DNA of 62,434 nt, the filler included, from Sphacelaria rigidula (lineage: Eukaryota): NCBI GenBank assembly GCA_964200075.2. It is 11 parts of 11 records of this genome, joined end to end, with 100 filler letters (N's around TTAATTAATTAA, not from the genome) between each part and the next. Parts side by side here need not be neighbours in the genome. Positions count along the whole stretch, not along the records: positions 5,686 to 11,270 come from CAXNAA020026098.1; positions 11,371 to 16,955 come from CAXNAA020026099.1; 9 more parts are not named here. The stretch is one strand, 5' to 3'. The notes under the pieces are model-generated. The model searched no databases and was not told the DNA's origin. It worked only from the letters and a program-made list of their open reading frames with translations. The translations under genes and the position numbers were made by a program. Positions 1 to 62,434 of the stretch are shown here, piece after piece; the first letter of the stretch is position 1; the number at the start of each line of letters is the position of its first letter.

Positions 1-250
1 GGGGGCGTACTCATTTGTTGCTTGCCTTAGTTATTTGACCATTGATGTATTCATGGGGGGGGGGGAGGGGGAGGCACTCCTCCACAACAACGTACAAGTG
101 GTGAAAATATTTTGGTCATTTCTCGTGGAGGTGTTGAATAAACACAGCACCTGGAGTAGAGTGGTGCACATTGCTCGTCACACAACGACGAAAGGGGGCA
201 GTCTTGCTTCGTTCCTTCTCTTTTTGATGGTTTGATTTTCACGCCAGTAC

Positions 251-5585: not shown

Positions 5586-5685
5586 NNNNNNNNNNNNNNN
5601 NNNNNNNNNNNNNNNNNNNNNNNNNNNNNTTAATTAATTAANNNNNNNNNNNNNNNNNNNNNNNNNNNNNNNNNNNNNNNNNNNN
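5586..5685. other. Artificial contig-joining linker N44-TTAATTAATTAA-N44 (also at 11271, 16956, 22641, 28326, 34011, 39696, 45381, 51066, 56751)
   Basis: Ten identical 100-bp spacers at an exact 5685-bp period. TTAATTAATTAA puts stop codons in all six frames. The intervening contigs are 5585 bp (last 5584), as expected for length-sorted unplaced contigs. Confidence 0.98.
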
Positions 5686-6313
5686 TTTTTTTTTTAAAAA
5701 GAAAAAAAAAAGAACAATTATTTATTTGTGGTTAAGTCCCCCCCCCCCCCCCCCCCCCTTGCAAATGAGTACGCCCCCCCCCGCTCCGCTCCCCCGAGTA
5801 GGAACGGTGCTCCGTCTCGCAAGGAATGCGTGATCAATGGTCCAACGACTAAGGCAAGCAACAAGTGGGTACGCCACCCCCCTCCCCCATTCCGGTCATT
5901 TTCAAAATGAGCGAAGATGATAACTGCATTTCCACCAAGCAGCTTCACATTCACAGCCCAACACGGCACAATATGCGAAGAAAACAGTACAATCAAGGCG
6001 TCTGCTTCATACTACATCTGCTTCGGTGCGCAGGGATTTTCAGAACAAAATACCATGCATACCTACACTGAAACCAAGCTCGCATTATGCAGGCCGTTTG
6101 TCAATACCAGGTGGTTGGTGCACGAAATCTCAATCAATCAGTTAGCTTTCTATCGATTTTGTTTTGGGGGGGGGGGGGCGTACCCATTTTTTGCTTGCCT
6201 TAGTCGTTTGACTATTGACCACGCATCCCTTTCGGGACGGGNNNNNNNNNNGATGCGGGTGGCGCGGCGACCACGTTGAAGTTGGTCCATGAGGTTATTA
6301 TCGTTTGTTTTGT

Positions 6314-6960
6314 GGGGGGGGATGGACGTACCCATTTGTTGCTTGCCTTAGTCGTTTGACTATTGACCACGCATCCCTTTCGAGACGGAGAATCATTCCT
6401 ACTCCTACTCCGATAATAGTAGGGGCACCTCTAACGTTCGGGTGCTCAATCTTCTCTTTCCATTAATCGTACACCAAACCTCTTACAAATCTTATCTCCG
6501 TTCTGTTTCGCCGTGTGTGGCCACCATATATCTCCTCGTATAGCCATCGTCTTCTCCCTTCTGCCTAACGCATCAAACGTTTTCATGCCACCTTCGATTG
6601 CTCCCCATGTTTCCCCCTCCAACACATCCCATTCCTCCTTGTACAGTTTAGACTCTGCCACCATATGAGTTCTACTCTCTATTGCTTTGCCTCACTGGTA
6701 TACCCCTTCCTTCTTTCTGGCAGGTCCAGATCCCCTACCCGAAATCGCAATTCCAGAATTTTCGCAGTCCGTTGGGTCATGCAGAGGTGTTTTCATCCCT
6801 ATCCCCTCCCTCAACCGGCCACACATCTTCAGGTGCACTTCCTCGTCTACTTTCCGTCTTCGCGTTTATTTTTCTTCCATTTCTATCAAGCCTCTTACTT
6901 TTGTCTTGTACCTTCCACGTTCACCTATGGACATTGGAGAGTTGCGGGGGAAGAAGAAAA
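6314..6960 (-). mobile_element. LINE ORF2 C-terminus (cysteine/zinc-knuckle region) plus 3' end, degenerate
   Basis: Translates to …GKAIESRTHMVAESKLYKEE…KTMAIRGDIWWPHTAKQNGDKICKRF, paralogous to 9340-9900. Ends in the shared tail motif and a G-run on the + strand. Confidence 0.8.
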
Positions 6961-8039
6961 CAGGCCTCAAAAATTCAGGGATAATCAACAAAGTTAGGAT
7001 TCAAGGCCAGGATATGATGAACTCCCTAGTTAAACCCCGACAACGAAACCCTGAGGAGAGACGTCTCCAGCAACTCAGGAGTAACTTTTAATTTTCGAAA
7101 TAATCCCCGAGTTGTGACCCACTCCGGAGCGTTCGCGCCAAACTTGGGGCTAGGAAACGGAACTAGACACCCCGCTTCACAACGACTAAGATGAGAGAAC
7201 ACAGCCGTAGGACAAATATCGTACGTGGGGCGATGGCAGCTCGTTCAAGAGGGCCACCCAAGGCTACGAGGAAGACTTGGAGGCGGGCGGGAGAGTCGAG
7301 ACAACACTCGACCTGGCTGAAAATGAGGCGGAGGGGCAGCAGTCGGTCACCCCTGCAGCGGCTAAGAGGACATCCACCAAATGGCCACCTAACGTCAAGC
7401 TTGTGTTGGCTCGCGTGAGTCCATCACCGATGGGTGGCCATTTCGTCGATGTTCTCGTGGCGGCTGCATGAGTGGCCGACTTCCGTCCTTCCGCCTCATC
7501 TTCAACCAGGTCGACAAGTGTCTCGGCTCCCCCGTCCGCTTCCACCCAGCTAGGATTACTGCGTAGTGTATGTGCTGAGGATGAACGTACTTGCTCAACG
7601 TTTTTACATAGACACACACCGGCATGTGTACAATTGTACTACAGAGAGTACAGAACTGTCTACAGACAGTCTATCAGGACAGTTCTCACAACTTGTGCTA
7701 GTGCTGTACCACACACCGACAGCTACAGCACTTGTGAATGACTTGCGGGCGCCGAGATACTGCTGTCGCGTATTCAAAGGTATAGGGGCAGCACAGACAA
7801 CTGTATACATGCTCTTCTGCGCTGTACGGGTAGCACCGCATGGGTAGGCGCAAACTACAAACGCAGAGCAGCACGGCGCAACTTTTACCTCTTCAACTCA
7901 CGACACCGACCACGTGGCACTCGGAACAGAAAATACTAACGCTGAAAAGTTGGCCACGGTCCACACCTACCTGGAAAAATAAAATAAACACAAACCTGGG
8001 GTTCAAGCGTGAACAATCCATCCGTTTTTCGCTCACCCA

Positions 8040-9231
8040 TGAGTTCAGATTTTTTTCTTCCCACAACTCTCCATCATCTCGTCTTGGTTTCCTCCAATCT
8101 CTTTTCTATACTTTCTCGACTACTCTATCCCACCTGATTCCAGCCTGCCCTTTCGTCATTTTCCACCATACAGCCCCGTCAGCTATGGCTGGCAATCTCT
8201 TTCTTTTCATGCTTCTTACAAAATATGACCACTTAATTTCCTCTTGTCTCTGTTTGTTTTAAGTGAGTACATTCCCATCTCTGCTCCCAATACTGTATTA
8301 CTCGTCGTTTTCCAGCATTCCAATTATTTTTTTCGATGTTGCCATCTGTACTGTTTCCAACTTCTTCAACTTCGCGCTCCCTCTCATACTTCTCCCGCAT
8401 GTTCCAGCCTTGGTACAATCACGTTCATCAGGATACGTCTCTTAATCCTAGAGTCTAGGTGCGAGTCTCTGACGATCACGTCAATCCTACCTTCCTGTAC
8501 CTTACCCTCTTCGATTACTCTACTCATGTGTGCATCCCAAGAATAATGTTTCGAGACCTCTACGTCAAGGTATGTTTACTGGTCTACTATCGGCAGTTCC
8601 TGGTCTCTCCCCTTCCATTTGATTTCTACCGGGTTCTCATCTTCGCTACATGGAAGTACCGCGCATTTGTTTACGTTCGCTGTCACTCTCCTTTCCCAGT
8701 GTATAATATCGCCTTCTCTATTTGCTTCTGCAATCGTTCTGGTGTATCTGATATTCCCATGAGATCATCCGCGAATTGATATCTGTGACGGTTTATAGGC
8801 AACCGATTAGACTACCGTATAGTCAGCGCTGACTGTACGGTAGTCAAATCGGTTGCCTATAAATCGCACAAAAGGTAGTCGCTGGTTCGATTTCCATCGT
8901 ACGCACTTTCTTTGAAGAAAAGAGGAAACCCCACCTGCAGTAAAGTTGCCTACAAATCGTCACATACCGAATCTTCCCCCACGTTGACTCCTTACTTTGC
9001 TCCTTCTTTTGCTAATATTAGGTGATTAACAAATATTTTGAATAAAGTGGATGATAACGTACATCCTTGACAAGAATATTTCGATATTCCCCCGCGTAGC
9101 ATCATGTCACTTTTCGCACATTGTCATCCGTTTCACCATTTTCCATATTTCTCCCCTCATGCCAGTTTCCCACATATTTTTCCACAGCCAATTTCTCCAT
9201 ACTGTCATAGGCCTTCGGTACGTCTAAAAAA
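8040..9231 (-). mobile_element. LINE reverse-transcriptase remnant (frameshifted), interrupted by a palindromic MITE
   Basis: Non-LTR RT motifs in order: FLDVPKAYD (~9200-9230), QGCTLSSTLFKIFVN (~9030-9075), FADD (8764-8775), then LMGISDTPERLQKQIEKA. Contains stops and frameshifts. Confidence 0.88.
8784..8963. mobile_element. Palindromic MITE-like insertion (TGTGACGGTTTATAGGCAAC termini; AGTCAGCGCTGACT core)
   Basis: Near-perfect palindrome 8784-8870 plus a second matching terminus at 8945-8963. It splits the RT between GEDSV and FADD. A related copy lies at 50999-51065. Confidence 0.75.
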
Positions 9232-9930
9232 CGGGGGGGGGGGGACGTACTATTAGTTGCATCCTTAGTCGTGCGACCATTAACCACGCATCACTCTCGA
9301 GACGGAACACCGTTCCTATTCCCGATGAAGACACCTCTGACATCTGGGCGCTCATCACGTTTCAGTACACAAAACGTTTTATACATCTTGTCACCTTACC
9401 GATTCGCCGTGTGCGGCCACCACCTATCTCCCGTAGTAGCATAGCCATCGTCATCTCCCTGCTGTCTCATGTATAAAACGTTTTCATACCGCCTTCGTTT
9501 ACTTCCCACATTCCCCCCTCTAGCACGCCCCGTTCCTCCTTGTATACTTTACATTCTGCCACTTTATGAGTTCTACTCTCGATTGCTTTGCCACAGGGGC
9601 AATTCTGTGCATCTACTTCCGCCTTCACTCGACTACTGGTATACCTCTTTCTTCTTTGTGGAAGGTCGAGGTCCCCCACCCGAAATCGCAGTTTCCATTG
9701 GGCCATGCAGATATGTTTTCATCCCTATTCCCTCTCTCAACTCGCCGCATATCTTCAGGTGCACTTCTTCGTCTACTTTTCGCCTTGGCGTTTTTTTCGC
9801 TCATCTTCATCACGTCTCCTACTTTGAATTTGTACCTGCTACATTTACCTTTCGACATTATTTAGTACTGGGCGCCTCACCTACTTCTTGTTCAGAAGGG
9901 TTCCTTCTCGCGACTACTCTTCGATAAGAG
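9232..9930 (-). mobile_element. Second LINE 3' fragment with CCHC-like knuckle, tail abutting the RT copy
   Basis: WKLRFRVGDLDLPQRRKRYT…CPCGKAIESRTHKVAECKVYKEER, then the shared 3' end and a G-run at 9232-9244. Confidence 0.85.
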
Positions 9931-10369
9931 TCGCAAGTGCTAGCGTCGGTAGATTTTGGTGAAATAAACATATCGTCTCCCCCCCCCCCCAGTACCAAAG
10001 TTAGTGTTTGTTGATTTTATCCGGCGACACGAGTAGATACCCCGTATATCAGCAGGGTGTTATTGACTGTGAAACACAGTTATTCAGCCCTAGTGCAATG
10101 AGTGGGTAATTAAAAAAAAAAAAACCTACACATTCCTTCACAAATACGACCGGGACAGGCTCGATCGACCGGAAATACCGAAGAGTCGGAATCTGGGCTG
10201 AAACGTGTCAGGACCTCCGATGACTGGTCAGCCTGTAAGTAATTCAATATTGAGTACATATGTTTTTTCCTTGGAATGTGGAGCGGACACAAGTATCTTC
10301 AAACCCTCAATGTGACGAGCAGTGGCCAGCGAAATAGCCTAAAAAAATCGGCAATCACGAAGAAATTAC

Positions 10370-10831
10370 AAAATGAAGAGTTCAGGCGCCCAGTACTGTA
10401 TCTCATCTTGGTTTTCACTCATATCCTTCCATACCTTCTCGACTACGCTATCCTACCTGATGCCAGCCTGCCCTTCCGTCATTTTCTTCCATACGGCCCT
10501 ATCAACGATGACTGGCAATCTCGTGGCATCCTCCTTTCGCCATACCGCCATTTCATTCTTCTCATGTCTCTGTTTGAAGTGGGTACAATCTCAAGTCTGC
10601 TCTCAATGCTGTATTACTCGTCGTTTTTGGACACCCAAGTATTTTCTTAGCTGCCGTCATATGTGCTGCTTCCAGCTTTTCATCAACTTCACGTTCCTCT
10701 TCCCATACTTCTCCTGTATATTTCAGCTTCGATACAACCACACTTATCGGAATAATATCTTAATTCAGTATCTACGTGAGTCTCTATCACCTCCAACTTG
10801 TCTATCTGTGTCCTACACTTTTCCATTACTT
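10370..10831 (-). mobile_element. Third LINE fragment (post-RT region)
   Basis: Paralogous to 8100-8500 at nucleotide level (e.g. ttctcgactacgctatcctacctgatgccagcctgccc). Its 5' truncation point abuts the G-run at 10832-10853. Confidence 0.75.
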
Positions 10832-10942
10832 GGGGAGGGGGGGGGGGGGGGGGGAGAGCCGGGAGGTCTCCCTGGCGGCTTTAGGGGGGGGTGCGTGTTA
10901 GCACATCATGGGGGGATCGTCTACCCTTTGCCNNNNNNNNNN

Positions 10943-11215
10943 TGACCTCGCATCCCTACAAAGCCGGGGCAGAGCACGCCGGGTTTTCGCCCGACCAGGC
11001 TCACACTCAATCACCAAGCGCGAAGCGCCGTGGTGTGTTCGGCGAGTCGTATGGGTGAGCTGCATCCTGCCAAGATTGTTCGGGCTGAAGACTACTGATT
11101 ATCTCGCTCATAGGGGAGGGGGGAAGGCTTCCCCCTACCCAACACAACTGGTTAGACACCCATGAGGCAGTGTAAAAAGCTGTGGCTGTCTCTGGAAGTG
11201 GCAATACCACAGAAT
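10943..11215 (-). mobile_element. Family-B short retroelement (SINE-like or second LINE 3' end); copies at 3845-4085 (+), 11371-11450 (+), 14885-15135 (-)
   Basis: Shared ccc/ggcgtgctc…gggatgcgaggtca block in at least four places. Its 3' end resembles the LINE tail (GGATGCGnGGTCAATGGTC…ATGAGTAC + C-run). Confidence 0.65.
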
Positions 11216-11592
11216 AAAGCAACTCATTGTTGGCTGTCACCCAAATACAAGATAATCAGTAGGCTTCGGGNNNNNNNNNNNNNNNNNNNNNNNNNNNNNN
11301 NNNNNNNNNNNNNNTTAATTAATTAANNNNNNNNNNNNNNNNNNNNNNNNNNNNNNNNNNNNNNNNNNNNTCCCGGCTTTGTAGGGATGCGAGGTCATGG
11401 TCAAACGACTATGGCATGCATGATCATGAGGACACCCCCTCCCCCCCCCGCCTCCCGAGATGGTCAATGGTCAAATGACTAAAGCAAGCAAGAAATGAGT
11501 ACGCCTCCCGAGATATATGCCACCCCTTGATTGTGCCGTGTTGAATGCGTTACTGTTTCGATACACCTTCATTTTTACGGTACTATACTCAC

Positions 11593-11696
11593 CGATAAAC
11601 GTTACGTCGGACAGCAGCTCGCTGTTTACCATTTCTCGCAAATTTCCGATCAACGTGCTTTCGGGAATATCGCAGCTCATCAGGTCGATGCTGAAC
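11593..11696 (-). CDS. LZTR1: LZTR1-like protein, exon entering the BTB domain (FSIDLMSCDIPESTLIGNLREMVNSELLSDVTFI)
   Basis: BTB start motif 'L..L..M…SDVTF'. GCAG acceptor, G|GTGAGT donor. Its phase matches the Kelch exon across a 2979-bp intron. Kelch-then-BTB order is the LZTR1 architecture; orthology not tested. Confidence 0.82.
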
Positions 11697-14800: not shown

Positions 14801-15344
14801 CTGTGTTGTATTTTCGTGTACATCGTCACATGTTGGCGGAAGGGAGGGAGGGAGGAAGAGGGGTGTACTCAGGATCTTCCAGGCCGTACTCATATGACAA
14901 TTGACCTCGCACCCCTACAGAGCCTTGGCGGAGCACGCCGGGTCTTCGCCGAACCAGGCTCACAATCCATCATCAAGCGAGAGGCGCGGTGACCTGCATC
15001 CTGCTAAGATTATTCGACCCGAAGCGTACCAGTTATCTTGCATTTGGATGACAGTCTCCAATGGGTTGCTTCATTTTCTGGCATCACCATTTCCAGATAC
15101 CGCCACGGCATAACTCTGCCTCATGGGTGTCTCACCATTCAAACACCATCAAGTATGATCATCCTCTTTGCCCGAGAGTGAGGTTCCCCCACCCCGCACA
15201 TCATGATCTAGCTAGACCACCATCATGGTAACCGCAAAAAAAAAACGCATGCGCACGAAAATGAGCGATAGCGTGGTTGCCTAGCTTGTGCAGTGGTGGC
15301 GTGTTCAACAGCGCCGTTGCCAACCGACGTCAACCCCAAGGGGA

Positions 15345-15854
15345 TTCCGTCCCTGTAAGGCCGCTTCTCATAGACTGAAGAAACATCTCTCTGAGAACCG
15401 CCCTTTTGAACCCTTCATCAGGGATTATTGGCGGAATATGGGCCTCGGCGGATTTGGCCTCCTCGGAACTATTTGCGATATTTCTCACGAGGATTCTAGC
15501 GCAACTTTTCCGATTGTTTGTAGGCCCAGCTTTACTTTTGACGGGGTTTTGATATGTTTCAGTCGCCCCCAAAAACGTTTAGTTGTCGGGAAGAAGACGT
15601 ACTTTTCCCCGACAACTCCAAGTTTTTTGTGCCGACTGAAAAAATCCAGAGTCCGGTCAATACTAAAACTGGGCGTACGAGAGATCGGACAAGCGCGCTG
15701 GGATCCTCGTGTAAAATATAGCAAATCTTTCCGTAGAGGCCCAATCCGCCAAGGCCCGTATTCCTCCAATAATCCGTGATGAAAGGTTCAAAAGGGCGGT
15801 TCTCAGAGATTTTTTTTTTCAGTCCATAAGAAGAGGCCTAAAGCCGGGACGGAA
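15345..15854. mobile_element. ~510-bp foldback (whole-length imperfect palindrome), MITE-like
   Basis: Arms pair from TTCCGTCCC…/…GGGACGGAA inward (e.g. tctctgagaaccgcccttttgaacc / ggttcaaaagggcggttctcagaga) to the centre agttgtcggg…cccgacaact at ~15581-15617. Confidence 0.85.
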
Positions 15855-21157: not shown

Positions 21158-22219
21158 CTTGGCTGTAGAGAGGTAAAAGACACACGCGAAGAAAGTATCC
21201 GCGGTACTACCAGAAATGGACGAGGAAAACATCAACACATACGTGAGTGTGGATAATTTTCGTATTTGTTATCACAATATTTGATACATATGACATCACT
21301 CAGACCCGTTGATCGATAAGTGAAAGATACAAACTGGGCCGACCAAGAAACCTATGATGCGTCAGATGGTCACATCTATTGCACGGCACTAGGTCAGAAA
21401 AAAACTTGGTACGCGTTTGTAATTTTCTAGTCAGAACGGAGAAGCAGAGTCGTTCAGCATAGGGATTAGTCATGTTGGCGTCGCAAAATTTGCGTCTCCG
21501 TGTTATTATACGAGTACTGCACCACTCCTTTTTTTTGTAGAAACACAACAACAGACAGGCTGGTTCAGGGTGAATGGCCAAAATGTTGGAGCTCGGAAAT
21601 GGTTTGTCTAACCATTAACCAGTCAAATGGTTACGCGTAGCGCACTCATTAACCAGTTAAATATTACATGATGGTTTGATCATCGAACGGTACAACTGCG
21701 AACCAAAAAGCCCCCCCCCCGGGCAGAGGGGGCCCCGCCGGAGACGCGCCCTCGGAGAGCCCCGCCGTGCCGGAGGCACATTTGTACGCGATTTGGGTGC
21801 ACTAGAGCATTAAATTTGAGACAATTTTCAAGGACTGTATGTAGAATGCGTAGCCGGTAACGGCTTATCAAGCCGGTAACGGTGAAAAATGGTTTGAAAC
21901 CATTATCCAATTTTTTCATATAACCATTATTACCATTACTATTACCATTATTACCATTATAATGATGATGGTCGGTTATTATAACTGGTACCATTTCTGA
22001 GCTCTAGAAAATGTACTCACTCCCCAGCGATTGATTTCTCACGCCGTTTTATGTTTTTTCGACTTTTAGGCCGGATGTTATGGCACACGGATTTATGGCC
22101 CACGGATTGTTCACTTCTGGGACGTTTGAGCCACTCTTTAACCCCCAAACAACAGGGAAAACCGCCGACACACGTCTTGGACACTTTGCATCACCCCACA
22201 GATAGGAGCCTATATTATC

Positions 22220-22423
22220 GCCCACTTTTCAGATTTTCGCTTGGCTCCAAGGTTTCGAGATTGGCCGCTGAACAATACTCAGTGTGAAATAAAATCTACG
22301 GCGATCTCCACAGATTATTGGGCAAACTGCCATATGTTGGCAAGCACAGATTATTGCACACGGATTATTTTGTTCTGCGGCCAATCTCGAAACATCGGAG
22401 CCAAGCGAATCTGATAAGTAGGC
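22220..22423. repeat. ~200-bp inverted repeat / hairpin
   Basis: ttcgcttggctcc..ggtttcgagattggccgc.gaacaa pairs with ttgttctgcggccaatctcgaaac..cggagccaagcgaa. Confidence 0.8.
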
Positions 22424-23229
22424 TAGGCTGCTTCTGGGGGTGATGCAAGGTATCCGAGACGTAACACTATATTCGTGAGATTCAGAACGTAGTCTTGGAT
22501 TCAGAGTGAATGCTCTAGCGTTCCTAACAGGCAACTTCTTTTTTTTGCTTGAGCACACGTCCTGTGCATGCAGCTACCGTACAGTACCCCATTCGAGGAA
22601 TGCGGTGGTCTGGTTGGTGAGATACCGCACAAAGCATTTTNNNNNNNNNNNNNNNNNNNNNNNNNNNNNNNNNNNNNNNNNNNNTTAATTAATTAANNNN
22701 NNNNNNNNNNNNNNNNNNNNNNNNNNNNNNNNNNNNNNNNGGACTGCTGAACCCCTCTCGCGATAAAATAAAATAAAGGCAAGCACCGCAGGAGGAAGGT
22801 GGGGTATTAAAAACGAATAAAAAAGAAAAAGCTCCTGTGTTGTCCTTCCTCCTGTGTGGCCCCGGCTGATGCGCCCACATACACCGAAAGGTGTAGACTG
22901 ATACCCAGAATAAATGGGACGACAACACACAACAACACAACACTGGTGCGTAAAACTCAAAATCCCCTCAAACACGGTCTCAACAAGTATCTCTGTGAAA
23001 ATATGACATCACAAAAGCACAAGCGAATTTCTTGAACTCCATAGCAACAAGGACCCTCAGGCAACAGACAGATAGTACGTCAACGTTTGATTTGCTGGAT
23101 AGGGTGCGTGGTGAAGGATATCAATGCAAAGACAAGCAGCCCAGACATGAAATATTCCGGATCATGCCTGTTTCCACGTACGTCCGACTTTGAGTTTTCT
23201 TGAGGACAAGCACATGAATAATTTTCGGG

Positions 23230-30600: not shown

Positions 30601-31539
30601 CCTAGTGCACGTGGGTTCTCCTAGATAATGCCCCCCCCCCCCCCCAGTGTTTCATGACAATGGCATGCATGATCATGAGTACACCCCCTCGTGTTTTGGG
30701 GGTCAGCCAGCCTCCTGAAGCCGTTGTGCCGCTAACCATTCGTGCATGGCGCGTTTTTGAAGTCGCATTTCGTTTTGCCAGGCAAGGGCTCCCGCGAACA
30801 AAAGTTGAGGCTTGTGGATGGTCATCTCGATACGTTTGCTGTTGGGCATCGCGGGCACAGCTCTTCACTAAGGAGTCTTGTAACCCGTTCGGTGTTTCCT
30901 GTGGAATCTAACCTCTCACCGCGAAAGCTTGTGATGGGTAATGCGGAGACTGTTGAAGTCTTCCGTGTAACACACCCGTACAACACAGCTTCTACTATAT
31001 CCAGCATTAATTGTTTGATTCATCAATTATTTGATTGTCGCAGCTTAGCTGACCCCCCAGGAGTCGTGGTCCAGCCGTGGTCAGTATCCACATGATAGAC
31101 ATCCCCGAGATGAGAACATTACTGAAACACCTGCTGAAGAAGTAAGAAAAATACGAAAAAGGTAACAGAACAACAGCATGGACGAGACAGAAAGTGAAAA
31201 TCAGAAAAAAAAAGAAGAAGAAAATGGGCGGGCTCTGCCACATGGCTTCGGCGGAAAAGTTCTGGCGCAGAGCCACACTCATCCCCAGTCGTAAAAAACG
31301 AATAGGATCGGGAAAAGTAGAGATTGAGACTCACCTACTACGAGCGCACTATTTGGGGTATGGATCCTCTCTTATATATGTCGAACTTAAGCAACCGGTT
31401 TTCAATGATAGCCATGCGTTCCGTCGATCGTAGAGTTGGCAGCTCTACTTTGGGAGACGTGCCCGCGCAGCGCTTGTGCGGCAGTTGATTTCGATGGAAA
31501 TTTATTCATCCGCGCGGACAGCATGAAGGTAGACCATCT

Positions 31540-32400
31540 TGGCCGTCTGCTTATACCGTTGACCTGCTGAGCTGATGTGCAGGGTGGTCTCTGCGGAGCT
31601 GGGTACTAGCCACAGGTGCGTGGACTGTTGTTTCACTTCCCGATACTGTCGGACCGAACTCCTGACAGGCCACCACAAACACGGCCATCATTATAGCAAA
31701 CCCGTCTGCGGACTCGAGGCTACGCTGGTGTCGTCTGTATATAGCATTGGCGATACCGCGCACCGTACCTTCTTCTGCGGCGTCTCTTCCGGAAGTTCAC
31801 CGCCGTCACCTTTTGGCGCATCATCTGGTTATACCAAGGCCGAGACGATGGCTAGGTCTGCTGCGAACGCTCGTTGTAGGATGGCATCAAACAAGGTTGC
31901 GCCGAAAATGTTGAACAATAACGGGGACAAAACACTTTTTGTCTTAGTCCTTGGCCTAAGTGTCACCACGCTGATGCTTCGCCATTATCCAGCTTCACCC
32001 GAGCTCGCATGCCATCGTTCAACATACAGGTAACCGTGATCATTTGCTGCGGGACTCCAAACCGTGCAAACACTTCCCACGAGAGCGTGGCGGTCTACCA
32101 CATCGTGGGCCTTATGCAGGTCGAGGAAGCACATATTTAGTGGGACGTTGCTCGCATGTCCCGACCCCTGTAGTCGGCGTACCACGAACATCATGTCCGC
32201 GCTCTGTCGTTGGCGCCGGAATCCGCACTGGTCTTCCGCGAAGATCCCTGCCTCCTCACAGGAATTGCTGAGTCTGTTGGCGACCATTTTCAGGAGAACT
32301 TCACCGCCATGTTCCGCGAGGGAGATGTCCCTGTAGCTACCACACTCGGTCGTATCCTTCTTTTTGTGTAGCACTTTGATAATGACATCTCTCCACTCGC
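31540..32400 (-). mobile_element. RTE-clade LINE reverse transcriptase remnant inside the WDR24-like intron
   Basis: LHKKKDTTECGSYRDISL…LLKMVANRL…EDQCGFR…DMMFVVRRLQ…MCFLDLHKAHD, followed by degenerate 'LSPLLFNIF' and YxDD-like segments. Frameshifted. Confidence 0.88.
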
Positions 32401-33481
32401 AGCCTAGCTCTAGCCCTATCCACGTTCACACGCTTTTCTCCTCGAGCTGCCCTTCGTTAGGGGCTGTTACTTCTTCTTACCTTACGGGCGAGTATTTTTT
32501 TCTGCTCCGATTTTTCGTTGCCACGTCAGTCATGGTGCCTACCTTTCGTTTTCGTCTCGCGGGTAGGGTGCAGCCTCCCCAACCCGCATTGGCCGCTAGC
32601 TCCAATTCCCCGAATCTGGTACTTCCTCATGCGCGTCTTATCTCGATCACCATGCCCTCCGTGTCAGTTCCTCAACTTCGGGTAAAGCTCCGCGGCTGCA
32701 GGATTGCGTTGGGATTCCAGCACAGAGTAGAACTCTCAAGCAGCAGGGTTTAGTTTTGAGGTTGACACTGCCGGCATGGCCTGCTGCCTAGACTGTGTGT
32801 TGCATCAACGCGGACTCAAAACGCAGACTAATCCGTAGGTCACGTCACTCTCTCCCACGCATGGTTGCGTCATTAGGTTTCTGGTCGGGGTTAGCTTACC
32901 CCGACACGACCATCCCCAGTCGGGAGGCGGTCGGGGGCCGGAAGATAACACAGCAAATGAAAGTCCGGCCCAAGTGGTGAGTGTCGTCAGGACGGCTACT
33001 AGAACTGAAAATGCCAATAGGTTTTCAAAGGCATGAATAAATCAGAAAAGCACAGTCGACCAGACCTCCCATCAAGGAGCAGAAGTATTCCGCCAAAATC
33101 TTGCCTGTCGGCGGCCTCAATCTTCTTGTCCCGCTGCTGCCGCTCCACAGAATCCTGCAGAAACTCATACCCGCTTGTCGGCGCTTCAAGGCGACCTCTT
33201 CACCTGCACATACTTCTGCCGATTCGCCACATGTCATAGTATGTGATGGAATAAGTGGGCATACCGATAATACTTCTCAGTTAGCCACCCCCGCTCGCTA
33301 CCTTATCCCCTCTTGCCAAGAGTCGGGGTCAAGTGCATACGATTGCGTCATCAGAACAAAGCTGCAGGATATCCTCCCATGTACATCCAGTGCGTTGACT
33401 CTCCTCGTGCTTTCCCGCTGCCCCCCTTCCCCCTCGCGCCCAACGTCGCTCACTTATCTCATCCATCTGTACCAATACCAG

Positions 33482-41711: not shown

Positions 41712-42500
41712 AAACATAACGAGAATACCATGTAAATCCTTGGAAATAACTAATCGAAGAAGGTCCTCAGATCTGTTGACCAAGAGCACAAAGCACGTTG
41801 CAGCAGGATCCGAGAAACCGAAGCTCCACCTTTGCGCTTGTCGGCGTGCTCGACGTTCAGCGCTGTAGGGGGCAACTATGGAAAAAGGGGTCAGATGAGC
41901 TAGCTCATGATTATACGGATCAGTGCACTAATATTAAATAATATTTGGATAACTAGCTCATGAGCTGTCTGTCCGACGTGTGATTTTTTCGGAAAAAAGT
42001 GAAGAAAAATCTTGGAAAAAAACAACTGTTGACTAGACCCCTTGAGGGGCCAAAAATGCAAAACCGATAAAGATTGCCTATTATGGCCATTCGGCACCAT
42101 TTTTAGGGTCAAGAGGAGATCGCAAGGCACGCGTCGCCGCCTCGGAAAGACTATCTCTACTGTCTGACTGAGAGGAATTTGACACACACTTTGGTGAACT
42201 CTGGTGCGCGCAGTTTGACTCTGCTGAGTCGAAAACAAACAACACACGCACTTTTTATTGTACACGCCGTCCCGATTCACAGAAGCATAAAAAAATTCCC
42301 ATGCACTCGTAAATCGTTATGGCTTTGCACAACAGTATCAGCTTTCTCTCGTTTTTCACGAGCCAGAGTGTGCATGTGCCCTAATACTCGGGATGGGTTG
42401 ATGGCTTGTACAACAGTCAACTTTTTTTTTCCCCGGCCCAGGGTCACTTTGCGCGCACCGGAAATAGTCAAATTGTGCCGGAATTTTCTCGAAATCCTCT

Positions 42501-42668
42501 ACACCTTGGACAATATATGGTCAACAGTTGCAATAGACAATAAACATACTGCATAAAGTAAAGGCCTGTTGCGACTATTGTCGGCCGGCAATAGTCGCAA
42601 TAGGCCTATACTTCATGCAGTACACTTCTCGCCTACTGCATCTGTTGACCATGTATTGTTCAGGGTGT
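42501..42668. repeat. 168-bp near-loopless palindrome
   Basis: Symmetry centre at ~42585 (ttgcgactattgtcggccggcaatagtcgcaa), pairing out to acacc.tg.acaata.atggtcaacag / ctgttgaccatgtattgttcagggtgt. Confidence 0.85.
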
Positions 42669-44411
42669 GGAATCCTCTGAAACAGTAGAGTAAGTCATTA
42701 GGAAGTTATGCTGACAAGCAAAAAAGGGGGGGGGGGGCGTTCTGGAACTGTATACTATCCTGATCGCACAGTCTTCTTGCGTAAAACCTTGGTGGCAACC
42801 CGAAAATCGCATCCGTACTCGTTTGCTAATTTCGCTCGGACAGGGGGCACATCATCGAGGGTCCTTACTCTGTACCAAGTATATATGACACATGGCGCAC
42901 CGTGTGTAGCGGGATGATGTGGGCTGAGGCTCGGAAATGGTCTGTTGGTGAGCATATGCCTTCCTTTAGCCACCCTGTCCAGCACCGTTCGCACGGTGCA
43001 CGCCCAGACCAGCATGTCGTCGCTTCTATAGTCATTCCTATCTCGCGCCGCGAACTCTCGATCGCCCACAACGCTGTTCCCCTGCAGTCATTGATACATG
43101 TAGACACACACATATGCCACACATATCGAAACGGTACAAGAGCGGACGAAAAAAGATCAACGCCTGGCTCGTCCAGTATTCGTGAGCTTTTGACTTTCTC
43201 TCTCACACGACCCATCCGTCTATATTTGCATGTATGGTGTACACATATGGGGTATCTGGAATAGCTAGGCGGGTAAAAACCCACCTGAGAACGTGACCCA
43301 GTGGCTTACATTAGCGATAACTTTCTCTATTCCATAGGTTAGCTTGGTTGTTGGGTATGTATCAAATTAACGGAGGCGGGGGTGCTTACGACGCCATCAC
43401 AGGTACATGCATTGAGAGGCGAAATTAGGAAGATACTCATGGGAAGTAGCGAAAATATCCGAGTTAAATTGATCGACAACTGTTGGATCCAAGTTGCCCA
43501 ATTATAGGCCGTTTTGACCCTTTTTGGCCGGTATTTTGATGATTTCGGCAGACTTACAGTGACTTACAGAGCAAGTACGTGGCGTGTGGGGCGGGTAAAA
43601 TACCCCAGACAAGAATTTCCACGAGCAAAAGCTGACGTGCATCCTGGAGTGGTGATGTGGCGGGTGTTATTAGGCGACCGACGGAAAGTCAAGAAGGCCA
43701 GAAAAAAAAAAATGAAACCGTCGTTCACATGTCACACACCCATCCATCTCATCGAGGTCACCCATTTCATTGTACTTCTCGCTGCAAGCGTCGCAAAGCA
43801 TGCAAAACAACACGCAGTCAACACCACGTGTCGGAGCCGATGACATGTAGAGGTGTAGCATGTACTGCGAGCGACCTCGGTACCTTGCGTCTCTATCGGC
43901 GCCGACAAAAGGCACCTGGAAGAGGAGGCATGTTCTCTCAAACCCCTGGATGACCCAGAACTATCGATCCCCGAACCTTTTCCGAGGCGACGCTCACAGC
44001 CAAAGGGTTGACGAAATCACCGATCGGAATCTTACGGGTCCATCATCTGCTGGGCCTCGAGCTTTGTTCAAGGCGCCGAAACGCGGCGCCTGATCCTCGT
44101 TACCCGCAGCAACACTTTCCTCGACACCGCATGTGACTGTCTCTAAAACGGAACCTCCTGTGTCTGAGAGTTCGCGGTTTGCATTTCATTAGGGTCGGGG
44201 TAGGGGTTAGGGCTGGGGTTACGGTTGACGCGGGGCGAGTTGGGTCGTGGGTTCATGTGATATTTATCAGCGTCACAAGGGTGACTCGTGGACAGGTAAT
44301 AATACTTCGAGCGCCCACGGAGTCAATCATTCGACCGCCGGGGCAGGTCATCTGAGGCCTTGTCTTAGGCCAATTCTTTGACTGGGTTTGGAAAACAAAT
44401 CCTGTGTAAAT

Positions 44412-44787
44412 AACTGCCTTTTGGGCCATTCTCCGTCATTTTACGCCCGAAAAGAGGGCTAGGCGGATGTTGACACCTTGGAATGACTTGCTCTACTCGT
44501 TGAGACCGTTTCAGGGTAGCCTTGCGTTTCCCGCTTGTCACAGTTTTATTTTCGGCCAAAACCTTCCATTTTCGAAAACAAACGGTCGAGTTATCATATC
44601 ATTCATTACTCGATCGTTTGTTTTCGAAAATGCAACGTTTTGGCCGAAAATGAAACTGCGGCCAGCCGGAAACGCAGGGTTGCCCTGAAACGGTCTCAAC
44701 CAGTAGAGCAAGTCATTTCAAGGTGTCAACATCCACCTAGCCCTCTTTTCGGGCGTAAAACGACGGAGAAGGGCCCAAAAGGCGGTT
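44412..44787. repeat. ~375-bp foldback within the interspersed repeat family
   Basis: Arms of about 120 bp pair closely (gccttttgggcc…gagaccgtttcaggg / ccctgaaacggtctc…ggcccaaaaggc). Confidence 0.85.
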
Positions 44788-45303
44788 TTCAACAGGATTT
44801 CAAACCCTCAAGGGTTGGTCTCAGGGCGTGTCTTCGCACTTTTTCTTTCGATCGAATAAATGGAGCGATGGGATTGATTTGAGCGAAAATTGCTCTCATT
44901 TTTGTCGAGTTGGGTCCACGCGAATTTTTAAGCTTTCGATCGACAAAAAACAGCGAAATTCGTGAAACGATACGTAGTCATTCGTGTACAGTACAGACAG
45001 TCTATACTGTCTGCACCGCTTGCAAGCAGTGTGTCTAGAGTACGTGTGTGCGTGTTTGTAGAGGAGGATGTGAAAGAGAAGCGGGCAACGTGCAGTGCAG
45101 ACAGCCCAGGACTATCAGTTCTCTCTGCTTACAATGCAACGTGAAAAGGACTTGGACAACGTGCAGCTTTGTACTGCCTGCTCTGTCCATGAGCGTGTTC
45201 GCAACTCGGTTGCCCACCGTACCACGCAGTTCCGTCACTGATCCTACCATGAAATAAGGTGCGCAAGGTTTCGCCAACAAAAATAAACAAAGCATATCCA
45301 ACC

Positions 45304-46143: not shown

Positions 46144-47795
46144 CGAGCTGGGCCAGCCTAGAAGCGGATTTGAAATTTGCAGGCCCATGCTTCCGCCAAT
46201 ACCTAGAGTCGGACCCTGAAATTTGGTATGGACAACGAATAGGGCGTGAAAAAAAGTATTACATCGGCACCAGAAGTTTTCATCATTTGTTACAGGTATC
46301 AGTAAAATACTAGAATCTCTATGACACTCTCGATCGATGCATTTAGCGGATGGAGACGAATTTTGGTGTGGAGAACGCAAAAGAGCCGAATAGAGAACAA
46401 AATGGGCCTGCATTTGTTTTTCGTAGAGGTTCAGGCGTTCTCGTGAAGAAATGGTGTTTACCGTAGTATAACGCCCTTAACCAGTGCAGGAAAATTAATA
46501 AAAGCAACCCGACCCACTTTGTTCTCTTGATTATGCGCTCAGAGAGCGCCCAACCAAAATATAATGCGCGAAGGTCAAAGATAGGCCAGTGAGTGGCCTG
46601 CGAAATACTATTCCAAATTTCTACCGACGCGGCTTTTAAAAGGCACATGCTCCCGCCAATGATTGGGGTTGGACCTTGAAATTTGGTATGGACAATGCAT
46701 AGGGCATGGAAAAAAAATTACATCGGTACCAATTTCTATTTTTTATTTCATGAGTTTAGGGCATTGCACTGATACTGAAAACTGATTATTGCCCTAGACT
46801 CATGGAATAAACAATAAAAATTGGTGCCGATGTAATTTTGTTTCCATGCCCTATCTATGCATTGTCCATACCAAATTTCAAGGTCCAACCCCAAACATTG
46901 GCGGGAGCATGGGCCTTCTCAAAGCCGGGTCGGTAGAAGTTCGGAACAGTATTTCGCAGGCCACTCACTGGCCTATCTTTGATCTTCGTGCATTATATTT
47001 TGGTTGGGCGCTCTCTGAGTGCATAATCAAGAGAACAAAGTGGGTCGGGTTGCTTTTATTAATTTTCCTGCACTGCTTTAGGGCGTAATACTACGGTAAA
47101 GACCATTTCTTCACGAGAACGCCTGAACCTCTACGAAAAACAAATGCAGGCCCATTTTGTTCTCTATTCGGCTCTTTTGTGTTCTCCACACCAAAATTCG
47201 TCTCCATCCGCTAAATGTCAGAAGAGTGTCGCGATGATCCCTTTGACGTGATCGCTAGAGTTGGCGCAATGGCACCTAAGCCAAGCAAGCAGACAAGCTG
47301 CTTTGGAGTGTAGACAGAAGATGATGTTCAAGGTGCCTCTTGCAGGCAAGACAGTCGAAACAACCCATCGTGTTGAACGGTCAACCGGGGAGAATGACTC
47401 ATGTATCACAACTGCTATCCCACATCATACCCTCACATCAGACCAAACCTTCGTGACCGGTACCTGCGATCCCAGCACTACATATATGTAAATATAAAGT
47501 CAGTACCATACGAAGCGTTGAAGAGCATGGCTTCACAGCCTCATCTTCTAACACTAAATGCATCGATCGGGAGTGTCATAGAGATTCTAGTATTTGCGTT
47601 ATCCCCCATAGGTATAGGGATTACTAGGCATGGGGTTCAACCAACGAGAAAAATATGACCCCAAACGTTTGAGCAAGTGGGCACCTTGCCCTTGATCAGA
47701 CGATTGATACCATATGTGGATCACGGCCCAACTCGTCTATGTCGATGAGATATTTCTTATCCAGCTGAAATCCGTTTTTAGGCTGGCCCAGCTCG
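46144..47795. mobile_element. Mariner-type non-autonomous element (28-bp TIR, TA TSD) containing a long foldback and a solo LTR
   Basis: TA|CGAGCTGGGCCAGCCTAGAAGCGGATTT … AAATCCGTTTTTAGGCTGGCCCAGCTCG|TA (2 mismatches). Internal inverted arms at ~46306-46762 and 46790-47594. Confidence 0.85.
47216..47553. mobile_element. Solo LTR (338 bp)
   Basis: TGTCAGAAGA…TCTTCTAACA termini and a 5-bp TSD CTAAA (47211-15, 47554-58). Removing it restores the reverse complement of the other foldback arm (cgatgcatttagcgg). Confidence 0.88.
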
Positions 47796-54520: not shown

Positions 54521-57409
54521 AATCACAGCTCACCCGTGTATTGCAGAACAGACAGGAAGGCTTTCTAAGATAATGTACTACGCTCTTGATTGTTGATCAG
54601 CAAGGGGCTGTAGAGGGATGCTAGCAGCAGTCGACTGTCGTAGTAGTCAGGCTTTGCACAGTAGAGAGTAGGCTGTCGCAATGAAGACTCCGCAGTAAAG
54701 GAGGCTTGTCTGCAGTCATCTGAAAAGAAGAGACTAACATAACCGGAGGAAGTACGTCGTATGCATCGCGGAGGTTTCTCTCTCGGCTGGACGTGAAGTT
54801 TTCGAGGAGAAGAGGCGAGATACCCTGACCTGTGAAATGCTGTTCTCTCCCGGCCGGACGGAGGTTTCTGGGAGAAAAGATTAGCATACTGACCCATGAT
54901 ATGCTATTTGCTGCGTGAAGTTTTCTCTTTCGGTCCAAAGGAGTCTTCCGAGAGACCTATGAATTGTTATGTTTCGTTAATGTTGTGAGATGTGAAATGG
55001 TGGAGTATTGACTGTGGACGATTGAACGCATCGGAGTGTTGATTGGTTGCTTGTATGTATGCACGTTGCAGTCGGAAAATTGTTGACTGTGAGTTGGACG
55101 CGCAAGAGTGTGTTAAAATCCAATAAAGTTGTTTGACTGAGGCACGCGAGAGTACAGCAATCGTTGAACGTTGACTGAAGTTTTTCACAGGTGTACGGAC
55201 ACCTGAAACCTCTGTTGAAAGGCAATCGTAAGGAGACACAGAAAATTGAAACATTTGTTTGACTGTAATGGCGAGAGTGACCAGCAGAGATGAAATCCAT
55301 AGACTACTGTGGTGGAAACATGGGTCAGCAACGTAGATACGTAGACTGTTACAGCGAAGGTAGGCCGATCACAACGAGAGCTTTGCAGCGAAAAACATGG
55401 GCATAGGAATGATTCCGAAAATGACTGCAGGAGGTTGCATTATAAACAGTGAAGAACGATATGCAATAAATTTCGGTTATGATGTCAAGTGGTGGCCAGA
55501 AAAACTGCCGAGGGTGTAGGGTAATGAGATCATTTTGTCTTCGTCTTGGGGAGTACACCGGCAGAGTATCTATGAACTTTGACTGAGGGAGGGTCGAGGG
55601 TGCTGGAACACGGATTTTCTTCTGAGCGAATATGCAAGCAGTTGAGTTGTGGATTGTTGTAGCGTAATAAAATTGCCTCGGTTGACTGTAGTTGATTGGC
55701 TATAGGAATCAAACGCCAGAGTACGGTGATCGTTGAAAGTTGACTGAAAATTATCGCAGGGCCAGTGATTTGAAATTTTGACTGCTGAAGACGAACGCGA
55801 AGGGGTACGGTGATTGATTCTTTTAGATTGACTGTTGTAGTAACGAACGTATAGTGAAGGGCATGAATTATCCGGGAGACCACTGAAGCGCAAGGAATAT
55901 TGGGTCAGCAACGTAAACACGACGGACGGTCGTAGCGTTTGAAAGCCAGAAATACCATGATGTGTAAGCGCTGCAAAACATGAGAACAGTACACGATTTA
56001 GGAAAATTGATGTAGGAGTGCACCCCAGGTGGAGAAACGAGACGGCATGCGCTGCATTTCAATCATGGAGTCGAGTGACGGCCGGTGAATTGCCAACAGT
56101 TACGAGGAAATGTTAATTCATGGAGTCGCTTGTTTCGATGGAAGGAAATAGTGATTGGGTGAAGATGCAAAGGTAGATGACGGATGACGAGAGCTGTGTT
56201 GTCGGTAGAATGGAATATGACGAGACGTAAACTTGAGGCTGACAATCATATTTTTCCTGGTCCCTCATGCCCCTTTCGAGCCTACACTTCCGAGTGAGGT
56301 GTCGAACCCCAAATTGCCTGACCGACCCAGGTACTGTCAACGGGAATGGGACATGCACGAAGCGGCAGTGGTTTGGGGGCGAACGGTGACCGAAGATCAT
56401 GCACTACCCCCGGCTGCGACGGTATTCTCTTCACTGGAGCATACTGAACGGGGGGATTTTTGCTCGTGAATGAAGGAACCCTTTCCCGTGCTTTGGAGGC
56501 AAGGCGTAATGCAAGCAGGGAAAGGGAGGGGGGTGGCGGGGAAGTTGACGTGCATTGAGTATATGTTCAAAGGCGTTGAGCGGTAATGCTCAGCCGGTCA
56601 ACGAAGGAAAGGGGTGTGGACTGAAAATTTGAGAGCGAGCGGAATGTTACGCTATGCTATTATGCATTTTCCTTGTTTTGAGAAACGAATACTTATTTGT
56701 TGCTTGCCTTAGTCGTTTGACCATTGACCACGCATCCCTTTCGAGACGGANNNNNNNNNNNNNNNNNNNNNNNNNNNNNNNNNNNNNNNNNNNNTTAATT
56801 AATTAANNNNNNNNNNNNNNNNNNNNNNNNNNNNNNNNNNNNNNNNNNNNCGCCAATATGACGCGCTTCACGCAGCCTGAACCCAAACATCAGACGCTGT
56901 ATGGCCATATTTTTCGCGACACTTTTGGGCTGGTTTTTGGGGGGGGCTATCGTAGAAAGTGTCACCGTGTCGGCGAGACTCCCTTTTCGGCCTTGACCCT
57001 CTGCACAATATCACGAAATCAACAGCTCCAGTATGTACACAGATTTCCGGAAGCTGGTGAAGTTCATCATCTAAAATTGACAAATAATGGGAACAATTTG
57101 ATGCCGATTGGTCACCCATGCAGGCGGCCATGGGCTCATCATCGTGAGCTATCCACGAAGAACTGTAGTAACGCTTGGCATCGGCAGTGACTTGGTTGTG
57201 TCCGCCCGTTTGTGATGTGTGCTATTCAACTGCTCGAGGGGTAAACGACGTTGCCTTGGGTCCACGTATTCGCTCTTGTCAGCCTCAGCTGGAAGAAGAC
57301 GGTGCGAACGATACGTATTCTACAACACACCTGGCTGCGTTGCCAATCCTCCAGAGGTCACGACGTGTTGCACTATTGTCGTTGGCACTCGGGAAATCAT
57401 GACAATACC

Positions 57410-61599: not shown

Positions 61600-62317
61600 C
61601 GCAGGTGCTTCCGATGAAGAACATTTGAGGCCGTTGCAGCTGCCTAGAAAAGATAACGGGCGCACAAAGTCGTGGCTGTTCGCTGCTTACTGTGAAATAC
61701 ACGGTTTGCTCGTGACCTGCACGGCAAAGGGCGTACCACCGAAATGTCAATTGTGACAAACCGCTAGCGCTCATGTGGCCATTTCTCACGGCAACGGGGC
61801 CCCGATTTTACGCATTCCATAATACTTGTCGATAGCTGCAAAAAAACAAGACGCGATGGACGGACGGCGGGCGGTCACCACATCGACCCCACGCAGTATG
61901 CGCCTAGCGCGCAGACATTTTTACTCGGATCCTTACCGCGGCTCCAATCATGTTGTTGCAGCTCTCCACCATATTTGTCGTTATCTGGTCCCACACACGA
62001 TTGTCACGGCGTGTGTGGTACGCCCATCACGTGGGGTCAATTCTCATCCACTTCTCGTATGCCTGGGGTTTGTCGGCCTTTACCTTGTTCAGGAAATATG
62101 CGCTAGACGCCTCGATCGGGGCTCTCGCTGCGTTGAATATGTGCCCGAAGTTAGTCTGGCAAGAACAGCATCACATGCATGCGGACGGGTACCGCGAGAT
62201 GAGCAATGCATCGCGACGGGCGACAACAGGGCATCATGTCGGCCACTATTGGAGTTGGGTTCAGGGATGCGAGGCCGATGGTCTTGTGACTATGGTATAA
62301 TTAATTGATTGATTGAT
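61600..62317 (+). mobile_element. Highly decayed LINE 3' region ending …QGCEADGLVTMV* + (TTGA)n
   Basis: HGLLV…KGVPPKCQL resembles a LINE zinc-knuckle region. The terminal GGATGCGAGGCCGATGGTC echoes the other families' 3' motif. Confidence 0.4.
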
Positions 62318-62361
62318 TCTCTCAAGGCATGCATGATCATGAGTACCCCCCCCCCCCTTCC

Positions 62362-62434
62362 CGAAAGGTGGCATGAAATCGTTTGATGCACTAGACAGTA
62401 GGGAGAAAACGATGGCTATACTAGGGGATAGATG
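62362..62434 (+). mobile_element. 5'-truncated LINE fragment starting right after a C-run
   Basis: GGMKSFDALDSREKTMAILGDR matches the 6540-6600 copy (GGMKTFDALGRREKTMAIRGD). Confidence 0.85.

Follow-up and report, generated by a model that had tools for sequence, protein, structure and literature searches.

Introduction

Among long interspersed nuclear elements (LINEs), mammalian L1 has a poly(A) tail and a T-rich primer, and target-primed reverse transcription (TPRT) with pairing between tail and target is established for L1 and for repeat-tailed LINEs. Here we describe a LINE of the brown alga Sphacelaria rigidula (assembly GCA_964200075.2) and its non-autonomous partner, both followed by runs of C, as found in a 62,434-nt stretch of joined genomic parts (the window, taken at its full length) and in the rest of the genome. 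Such elements are on record in Ectocarpus: Supplementary Material 3 of PMC12477816 enters RTEX-1_Ec32 as 'single EN-RT ORF; (C)n 3'' (one endonuclease-reverse transcriptase open reading frame) with a 'C-rich' target-site duplication (TSD), and RTEX-2_Ec32 as '(C)n termini/TSD'. Judging by these entries, the first-pass annotation of the window, which knew of no description of a poly(C)-tailed lineage, had missed this 2025 table, and the S. rigidula LINE is a new family of a C-tailed kind already recorded there. The same table lists RTEX-N1/N2_Ec32 as non-autonomous, with 83% similarity to the LINEs over the last 60 bp, and gives (CAA)n ends for Ectocarpus RTE families and (CA)n ends for CRE. 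Saccharina has RTEX-1, for which the relevant passages of PMC4421812 mention no tail. Green-algal RTEX elements end in short tandem repeats, listed as (CA)n, (CAA)n, (CCAT)n, (ACAATG)n and (CTTGTAA)n (PMC3747384, Table 3), whereas the S. rigidula LINE ends in a C homopolymer.

The LINE shares with RTEX-1/2 a (C)n 3' end, a C-rich TSD, thousands of copies and, in its relatives, a single EN-RT ORF. It comes from another genome and family than RTEX-1/2, and one autonomous type of it was seen. The table gives RTEX-1/2 as 5.5-5.9 kb with no separate ORF1. Its place in the RTEX-1/2 group would follow from matching features and protein kinship rather than from alignment. Its partner (~570 nt) is likened by description to RTEX-N1/N2_Ec32 (~600 nt, non-coding, C-rich TSD, tandem copies). 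As in mammalian L1, a homopolymer tail matches the start of the TSD and the reverse transcriptases (RTs) are similar; the LINE differs from L1 in having C/G instead of A/T, a predicted stringent 3' domain and a different clade, and its tail is presumably not made by a poly(A) polymerase. The stringent LINEs ZfL2-1 and ZfL2-2 have a 3' stem-loop and a short repeat (PMC4176376). As in these and in pairs of LINEs with short interspersed nuclear elements (SINEs), a structured 3' end common to both partners precedes a simple-sequence tail (PMC4176376, PMC3747384), although in S. rigidula the ORF contains the structure and a C homopolymer takes the place of the short repeat. The entries of the Ectocarpus table neither weigh tail against target nor give an RNA structure or a truncation peak. 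Our literature search met no paper joining a poly(C) tail with a retrotransposon, nor the tail-target duality, ORF-embedded RNA domain or (ATT)n/(C)n contrast set out below, which Repbase reports, subscription journals or supplements may hold.

C-runs follow the LINE 3' end in the window and across the genome

The first-pass annotation had reported a conserved 3' motif followed directly by a C-run or C-rich run. The motif was present wherever it had been placed, and the run everywhere except at 11460-11510. A 27-mer of the motif, with up to three mismatches, gave six matches in the window versus none in 100 shuffles, the copy at 9232 being found by BLAST. Sense-strand C or C-rich runs lie 3' of the motif at 1-5, 5774-5782, 5874-5888, 6166-6178, 6314-6321 and 9233-9244. 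The C-rich bases at 11460-11510 are instead part of a 13-nt target duplication (11449-11461, repeated at 11502-11514), and the copy at 56689-56750 lacks a C-run, as had been noted. C-runs on the 5' side of window copies, at 55-74, 5738-5758, 11435-11449 and 62346-62357, had been overlooked.

Across the 244-Mb genome, an exact 20-mer of the motif occurs 3768 times and its reversed control not at all. CCCC directly follows 2741 of 3557 exact 21-mers ending in GAGTACG, about equally on the two strands (1389 and 1352). Among 75 copies taken in contig order, the C share falls from 0.95 to 0.71 at +8 to +15 past the 20-mer and reaches background by ~+30, with no A enrichment, A-run or further conserved sequence past the motif. 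None of 269 runs of seven or more A's adjoins an element end, as an L1-type poly(A) tail would. Continuation past GTACG into conserved sequence and poly(A), or C-runs at chance level, which the annotation had named as counter-evidence, is not what the genome copies show. An independent contig (L311) also carries the algal 3' end, followed by C13.

C-runs on the 5' side point to a duplicated target

The 5' ends of copies were set by extension against real long copies. In a first set of 87 copies, 16 were dropped for gaps or short flanks; a replicate set (23 found, one dropped) brought the total to 93. In 50 of 71 copies and in 14 of 22 replicate copies, hence in 64 of 93 overall, a run of five or more C's is found no more than 25 nt 5' of the element, compared with a background of 67/2702; runs of five or more G's occur there in 2 of 71 and 1 of 22. 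A strict TSD search recovered a duplicated unique block in 21 of the 93 copies, versus 4.5 (maximum 10) in shuffled pairs. In these copies a C-run and then a unique block precede the element, and again a C-run and then a unique block follow it, an order that fits insertion at the 3' edge of a pre-existing C-run. Since 64 of 93 copies carry a C-run on the 5' side, the 3' run appears to consist for the most part of duplicated target, to which a variable true tail is added: an element that inserts at pre-existing C-runs would acquire much of its 3' run by target-site duplication. Sixteen of the 93 copies stand directly behind another element's 3' end, as do the window cases at 5761-5888, 11449 and 62346. 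We therefore consider it likely, from sequence comparison, that for this brown-algal RTE-X-type LINE and its non-autonomous partner the C-run serves both as a short tail and as the preferred target.

Other sequences also occur at C-runs. One repeat family begins AAACCAGCCC right behind C-runs (56880-56946 on the minus strand, L046, L080, L161, L268, L269, L271 and L383), and RTE-X copies often insert at its C-run junction; a second begins CCCTATCGTAGGATGACTC (L038, L066, L152, L162, L180 and window ~51294). Both may be further C-run-associated elements. Telomere-like GGGTTA/TAACCC repeats were seen at or near element junctions in L038, L027 and L064, and in L038 nine telomere-like bases separate the left TSD from the element. 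The idea that the LINE and its partner made most genomic C-runs was rejected: in 251,505 bases, made up of the window and 19 arbitrarily chosen stretches of 10 kb, strict patterns placed only 9 of 83 runs of seven or more C's beside a recognisable element, a lower bound since these patterns miss a few window cases.

The LINE probably encodes a single endonuclease-RT protein that ends just before the C-run

The annotation had put the ORF stop only ~5 nt before the C-tract. This holds in other copies and in relatives, but is unreadable in both long window copies: at 6314, TGG takes the place of the stop and the copy reads KASNKW, and the 9232 copy has a deletion there. In the genomic copy L124, the frame stays open for 129 codons between knuckle region and stop, after which come GTACG and C10, and the proteins of the intact relatives P0003, P0004, P0005 and P0010 end in KASNK. 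The near-absent 3' untranslated region (UTR), which the annotation had remarked on, is ordinary in this group, because the RTE-like L209 and L221 pass from the stop straight into (TGA)n and stop-to-tail spacing is no different in the G001 relatives. What had been called ORF2 probably stands alone as one EN-RT ORF, like those of full-length relatives and of the Ectocarpus table. Of the proposed poly(C)-tailed lineage of elements without long terminal repeats (LTRs), the non-LTR assignment (APE endonuclease and RT), the 5-nt 3' UTR and the C-runs in place of poly(A) stand, while its being undescribed and its having a tail only do not.

Open stretches of longer genome copies match RVT_1, and their solved-structure matches are L1 ORF2p and R2 (L1 RT similarity, E 5e-14). 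A search among longer proteins found 108 relatives, the best of which are single ORFs of 1328-1360 aa with an APE endonuclease and an RT of 68-75% identity; P0003, P0005 and P0135 have both Exo_endo_phos and RVT_1. The hallmark of APE-type non-LTR elements, both domains in one ORF, is thus seen in full-length relatives, and the genome copies show the fixed 3' end, variable 5' truncation and variable-length TSD of non-LTR elements. The endonuclease was not recovered from S. rigidula copies, the window pieces spanning P0003 aa 373-1360, and none of 20 extended loci held a full-length copy. These 20 loci are of the same family wherever the 3' end is present, and only one autonomous type was found; a query with a P0007-type C-terminus, aimed at another autonomous family from which the partner could derive, gave only 35-47% hits.

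Two clusters of relatives contain Ectocarpus proteins, with 61-68% RT identity to the LINE, and two Ectocarpus protein families that end in the same motif are its nearest named kin. In a tree of RT regions, two S. rigidula copies group with Ectocarpus-containing relatives (SH-aLRT, the Shimodaira-Hasegawa-like approximate likelihood ratio test, 97 and 100), outside an RTE-like, (TGA)n-tailed clade (100). The RTE-X label, which would suit the LINE, is taken from the Ectocarpus table, the tree holding no RTE-X reference. Ectocarpus RTE-1/2, of the RTE clade proper, have a (CAA)n tail and an RT within that clade, features that the LINE does not share.

A G[CR]VVNG-like terminal peptide is kept in distant relatives (C-termini of P0014-P0033, P0046, P0048 and P0053) and is probably a by-product of the underlying RNA domain described below. 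P0100, an Ectocarpus protein model, joins the LTR-type domains PF17917, PF17919 and PF08719 to the LINE C-terminus, probably because a nested insertion was annotated as a single gene.

A conserved 3' domain is shared with the partner and marks a truncation peak

The partner is non-coding, ~570 nt long and present in at least 1783 copies; its last ~66 nt are common with the LINE, and a C-run follows its 3' end in most of 30 copies. In the LINE, these ~66 nt overlap the end of the ORF (last ~20 codons). The lengths of the 93 LINE copies peak at the same point: 52 measure 59-71 nt, 16 are shorter, four measure 72-84 nt and 21 are longer, so that the truncation edge is also the 5' edge of the 3' domain and the limit of LINE-partner similarity. 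The two long partner copies L170 and L176 have a ~46-nt internal direct repeat, one unit near the 5' end and the other directly ahead of the 3' domain, and both begin where a LINE tail ends.

A majority-like LINE copy (L003, last 66 nt) and a partner copy (L172, the matching 72 nt) have an identical predicted three-way minimum-free-energy (MFE) fold. It consists of a hairpin, a long irregular arm and a basal stem that joins the -66 region to the final GAGUAC. Single-sequence folding was considered as proof of this structure and set aside as not significant. LINE and partner differ in 1 of 42 paired versus 6 of 15 unpaired columns, with two loops replaced (p 0.0008, the helices having been derived from the same sequences). 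Without a structure as input, RNAalifold predicts the long arm, in which double changes turn UA into CG and CG into GC. Pair counting over 15 sequences found 95% of cells paired and seven double-change cells, with 0 of 500 shuffles and 12-54% in slid controls. The hairpin pairs in all four families despite differing sequences, and compensatory changes occur in relatives from two other hosts. These results suggest that the 3' end is a conserved folded RNA domain inside the end of the ORF. An Rfam search of 5690-11600 gave the domain no match and returned three sub-threshold microRNA-type hits, on palindromes.

The more distant relatives are ~40-45% identical in protein to the algal ones and lie on contigs binned into prokaryotic metagenome-assembled genomes (MAGs), although they presumably come from eukaryotic hosts, which may be sponge-like. 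They keep the 3' domain at the DNA level, with an identical stop position. In G001, all 22 ends with a called terminus run into AT-rich (ATT)n-like tails, not C (five more ends have no called terminus), one copy lies inside another's tail (L365), and the ~65-nt pile-up is absent among the 22 copies. Other distant relatives, from a JGI metagenome scan, end in (ATTCC)n, (TGTCAT)n, (TTTGAC)n, (TAC)n or (TGA)n; none of the 79 loci of that scan had the LINE's 3' end. An IMG/VR pattern scan gave six matches, all chance. As a side observation, G001 yielded 108 motif hits, and prokaryotic species-representative MAGs (CBDBCZ, CBDAOC, CBRFFM, CBDICC and DAOUKA; L307-L336) include Mb-size contigs full of eukaryotic LINEs, a probable host contamination.

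The truncation peak could alternatively mean that the ~65-nt copies are a separate minimal element, whose RNA is processed to the domain edge and mobilised as such. The scarcity of copies just beyond the peak, the 64-71 nt length of 15 of the 21 TSD copies and the coincidence of the edge with the basal stem and the limit of partner similarity would all fit, but the 5' ends spread over ~12 nt, CTCC at the edge provides microhomology to C-rich targets, G001 lacks the pile-up and the fragmented assembly under-counts long copies. We regard this explanation as rather unlikely.

Target, tail or both

The TSD copies bear on how the run divides into target and tail. At least three C's stand ahead of the left block in 18 of the 21, the median C count is 7 on the left and 9 on the right, the right side exceeds the left by more than two C's in 8 of 21 and has fewer in 5, and copies with no added C exist (L060, L038 and the window copy at 11462).

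If the element ended tailless in GTACG(CC) and the runs were duplicated target, any excess arising by later replication slippage, the near-equal medians and the 13 of 21 TSD copies without clear excess would be explained, as would the termini/TSD wording of the RTEX-2_Ec32 entry in PMC12477816. However, targets with 0-3 C's bear 7-18 C's on the 3' side (L057, L069, L098 and L380), and slippage should affect both TSD copies alike; we judge such an account improbable. Less probable still is the opposite one, in which a long stretch of C's, added or templated, forms the tail of the RNA and C-runs do not guide insertion. It would account for the 8 of 21 TSD copies that are C-richer on the 3' side (3 vs 13 in L069, 3 vs 7 in L057, 0 vs 18 in L380) and for the few copies with 25 or more C's, but is already contradicted as the sole account by the C-runs on the 5' flank in 64 of 93 copies, by the order of run, unique block and element, and by the copies without added C. 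An artefact of sequencing or assembly (two-colour-chemistry poly-G signal, gap edges) may have inflated a few runs of 30-40 or more C's (L030, L159, L369 and L384), homopolymer lengths being unreliable, but is refuted for the pattern as a whole, as the runs go with the sense strand of the element whichever genomic strand it lies on, are bordered by unique flanks and TSDs, and recur in the independent contig and in the Ectocarpus annotation (entries in PMC12477816).

Several points weigh against a C-run that is both tail and target, with a folded 3' domain, in an RTE-X-type LINE. No strict TSD was called in 72 of 93 copies, and about 4-5 of the 21 calls are expected by chance; the division into target and tail would rest on TSD order in genomic copies. 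Single-sequence folding is weak, with z -1.74 (L003), -0.89 (L172) and near 0 in other copies; algal ends range from +0.35 to -1.74, and the MAG-borne L307 gives +1.07. The basal stem P1 is not in the MFE fold of L307 or L309 and is less well kept outside the alga, and the covariation comes from three or four lineages, with helices picked by eye. The tree was built by a quick method from 72 RT regions, with no labelled RTE-X reference among them.

Feature map of the window

The features are collected in Table 1. The long decayed copies A and B span 6314-9230 and 9233-10830 on the minus strand and are both interrupted; copy A is split by a palindromic insert at 8784-8870 and at its 5' end directly adjoins copy B's C12. 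The 11462-11501 stub is flanked by the 13-nt TSD given above.

Table 1. LINE and partner copies in the window, with adjoining C-runs (aa positions refer to the relative P0003)
Position	Strand	Feature
1..54	-	5'-truncated LINE copy, C5 at 1-5 (contig edge)
55..74	-	C-run on 5' side of the 1..54 copy, putative target
5738..5758	+	C21 run ahead of head-to-tail stub pair, putative target
5761..5782	+	13-nt 3' stub and C9
5796..5888	+	~78-nt copy, inserted after the tail of the 5761..5782 stub; 66-nt domain 5807-5872; C-rich tail 5874-5888
6166..6241	-	3' end with C13 (6166-6178); assembly gap cuts 5' side
6314..6934	-	Decayed long copy A, 3' part: zinc-knuckle region and C-terminus (aa 1151-1360)
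6328..6393	-	66-nt domain of copy A; interrupted C-run 6314-6326
8109..9230	-	Copy A continued: RT and post-RT (aa 815-1139), stops and frameshifts
9233..9859	-	Decayed long copy B, 3' part (aa 1176-1356), C12 at 9233-9244
10399..10830	-	Copy B continued (aa 1030-1150); C-run 10831-10858 at 5' side
10943..11107	-	Partner-family piece, inverted
11145..11449	+	Non-autonomous partner, SINE-like, gap inside, shared 3' domain, C-rich tail 11435-11449
11449..11514	+	40-nt LINE stub 11462-11501 at end of partner's C-run, no added C-run
14865..15364	-	Older partner-family copy, 73% identity
23240..24092	-	LINE EN-RT linker fragment (aa 373-657)
30631..30690	+	C15, then partner-family stub and short C-run
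56689..56750	-	LINE 3' end without C-run; gap cuts 5' side
62263..62434	+	Partner 3' end, C12 (62346-62357), LINE fragment starting right behind the run

An AT-rich insert with (TTGA)n interrupts the 3' domain of the last partner copy at 62299-62325. Assembly gaps at 5586-5685, 11271-11370 and 56752-56851 are filled by TTAATTAATTAA spacer, and contig ends often lie inside the LINE or at C-runs. An RT fragment of a different LINE at 31985-32425 (minus strand), 30% identical to P0003 aa 726-830, presumably resembles RTE proper. Palindromic foldback elements, of the kind of miniature inverted-repeat transposable elements (MITEs), lie at 7278-7544, 8784-8870, 15345-15854, 22172-22462, 42498-42671, 44397-44800 and 46340-47217, with 74-92% arm identity (the largest with 882 aligned bases at 92%); the palindrome at 7306-7515 gives sub-threshold Rfam hits to microRNA families.

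Discussion

A TPRT cycle can be proposed for the LINE and its partner in which the C-run is both tail and target. The LINE protein would bind the ~66-nt folded 3' domain, as the covariation and the sharing with the partner suggest; stringent recognition of a 3' structure has been shown for other LINEs (PMC4176376). The endonuclease would nick the G-rich strand of a genomic C/G run, and the G-rich 3' end could pair with ...GTACGCC(C)n, the terminus of the RNA, to prime reverse transcription. Slippage may add a variable number of C's, seen as the excess on the 3' side. If the second strand were cut ~6-16 nt beyond the run, the TSD would comprise the C-run plus unique bases, as it does in the copies. 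Synthesis might mostly halt near the 5' edge of the domain, yielding the ~65-nt copies observed; early 5' joining near the domain base could be aided by CTCC microhomology, 5' annealing being discussed in parts of PMC4760211. Each insertion would leave a new target, hence the head-to-tail clusters. A poly(C) polymerase would be unnecessary, the true tail possibly originating from the donor copy's own C-run.

A broader proposal is more tentative, and we hold it as a possibility below even chances: that one ~66-nt RNA domain at the end of the ORF has been kept from brown algae to unrelated, probably animal, hosts, that tail and target switched together from (ATT)n to (C)n, that the algal endonuclease nicks G-runs, and that the domain alone is the usual inserted unit. 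If true, nicking at G-runs would be the mirror image of the T-rich priming of L1, and ~66 nt plus C's would be a natural minimal template with which reverse transcription is targeted to C/G homopolymers. Relatives that have this 3' domain in common but end in either (C)n or (ATT)n could separate the contributions of tail-target pairing and of the endonuclease to target choice, and a 66-nt mobilisable domain would be a compact handle for TPRT biochemistry. For the genome of S. rigidula, C-run targeting would account for the head-to-tail clusters and for the contigs broken at C-runs, not for most C-runs.

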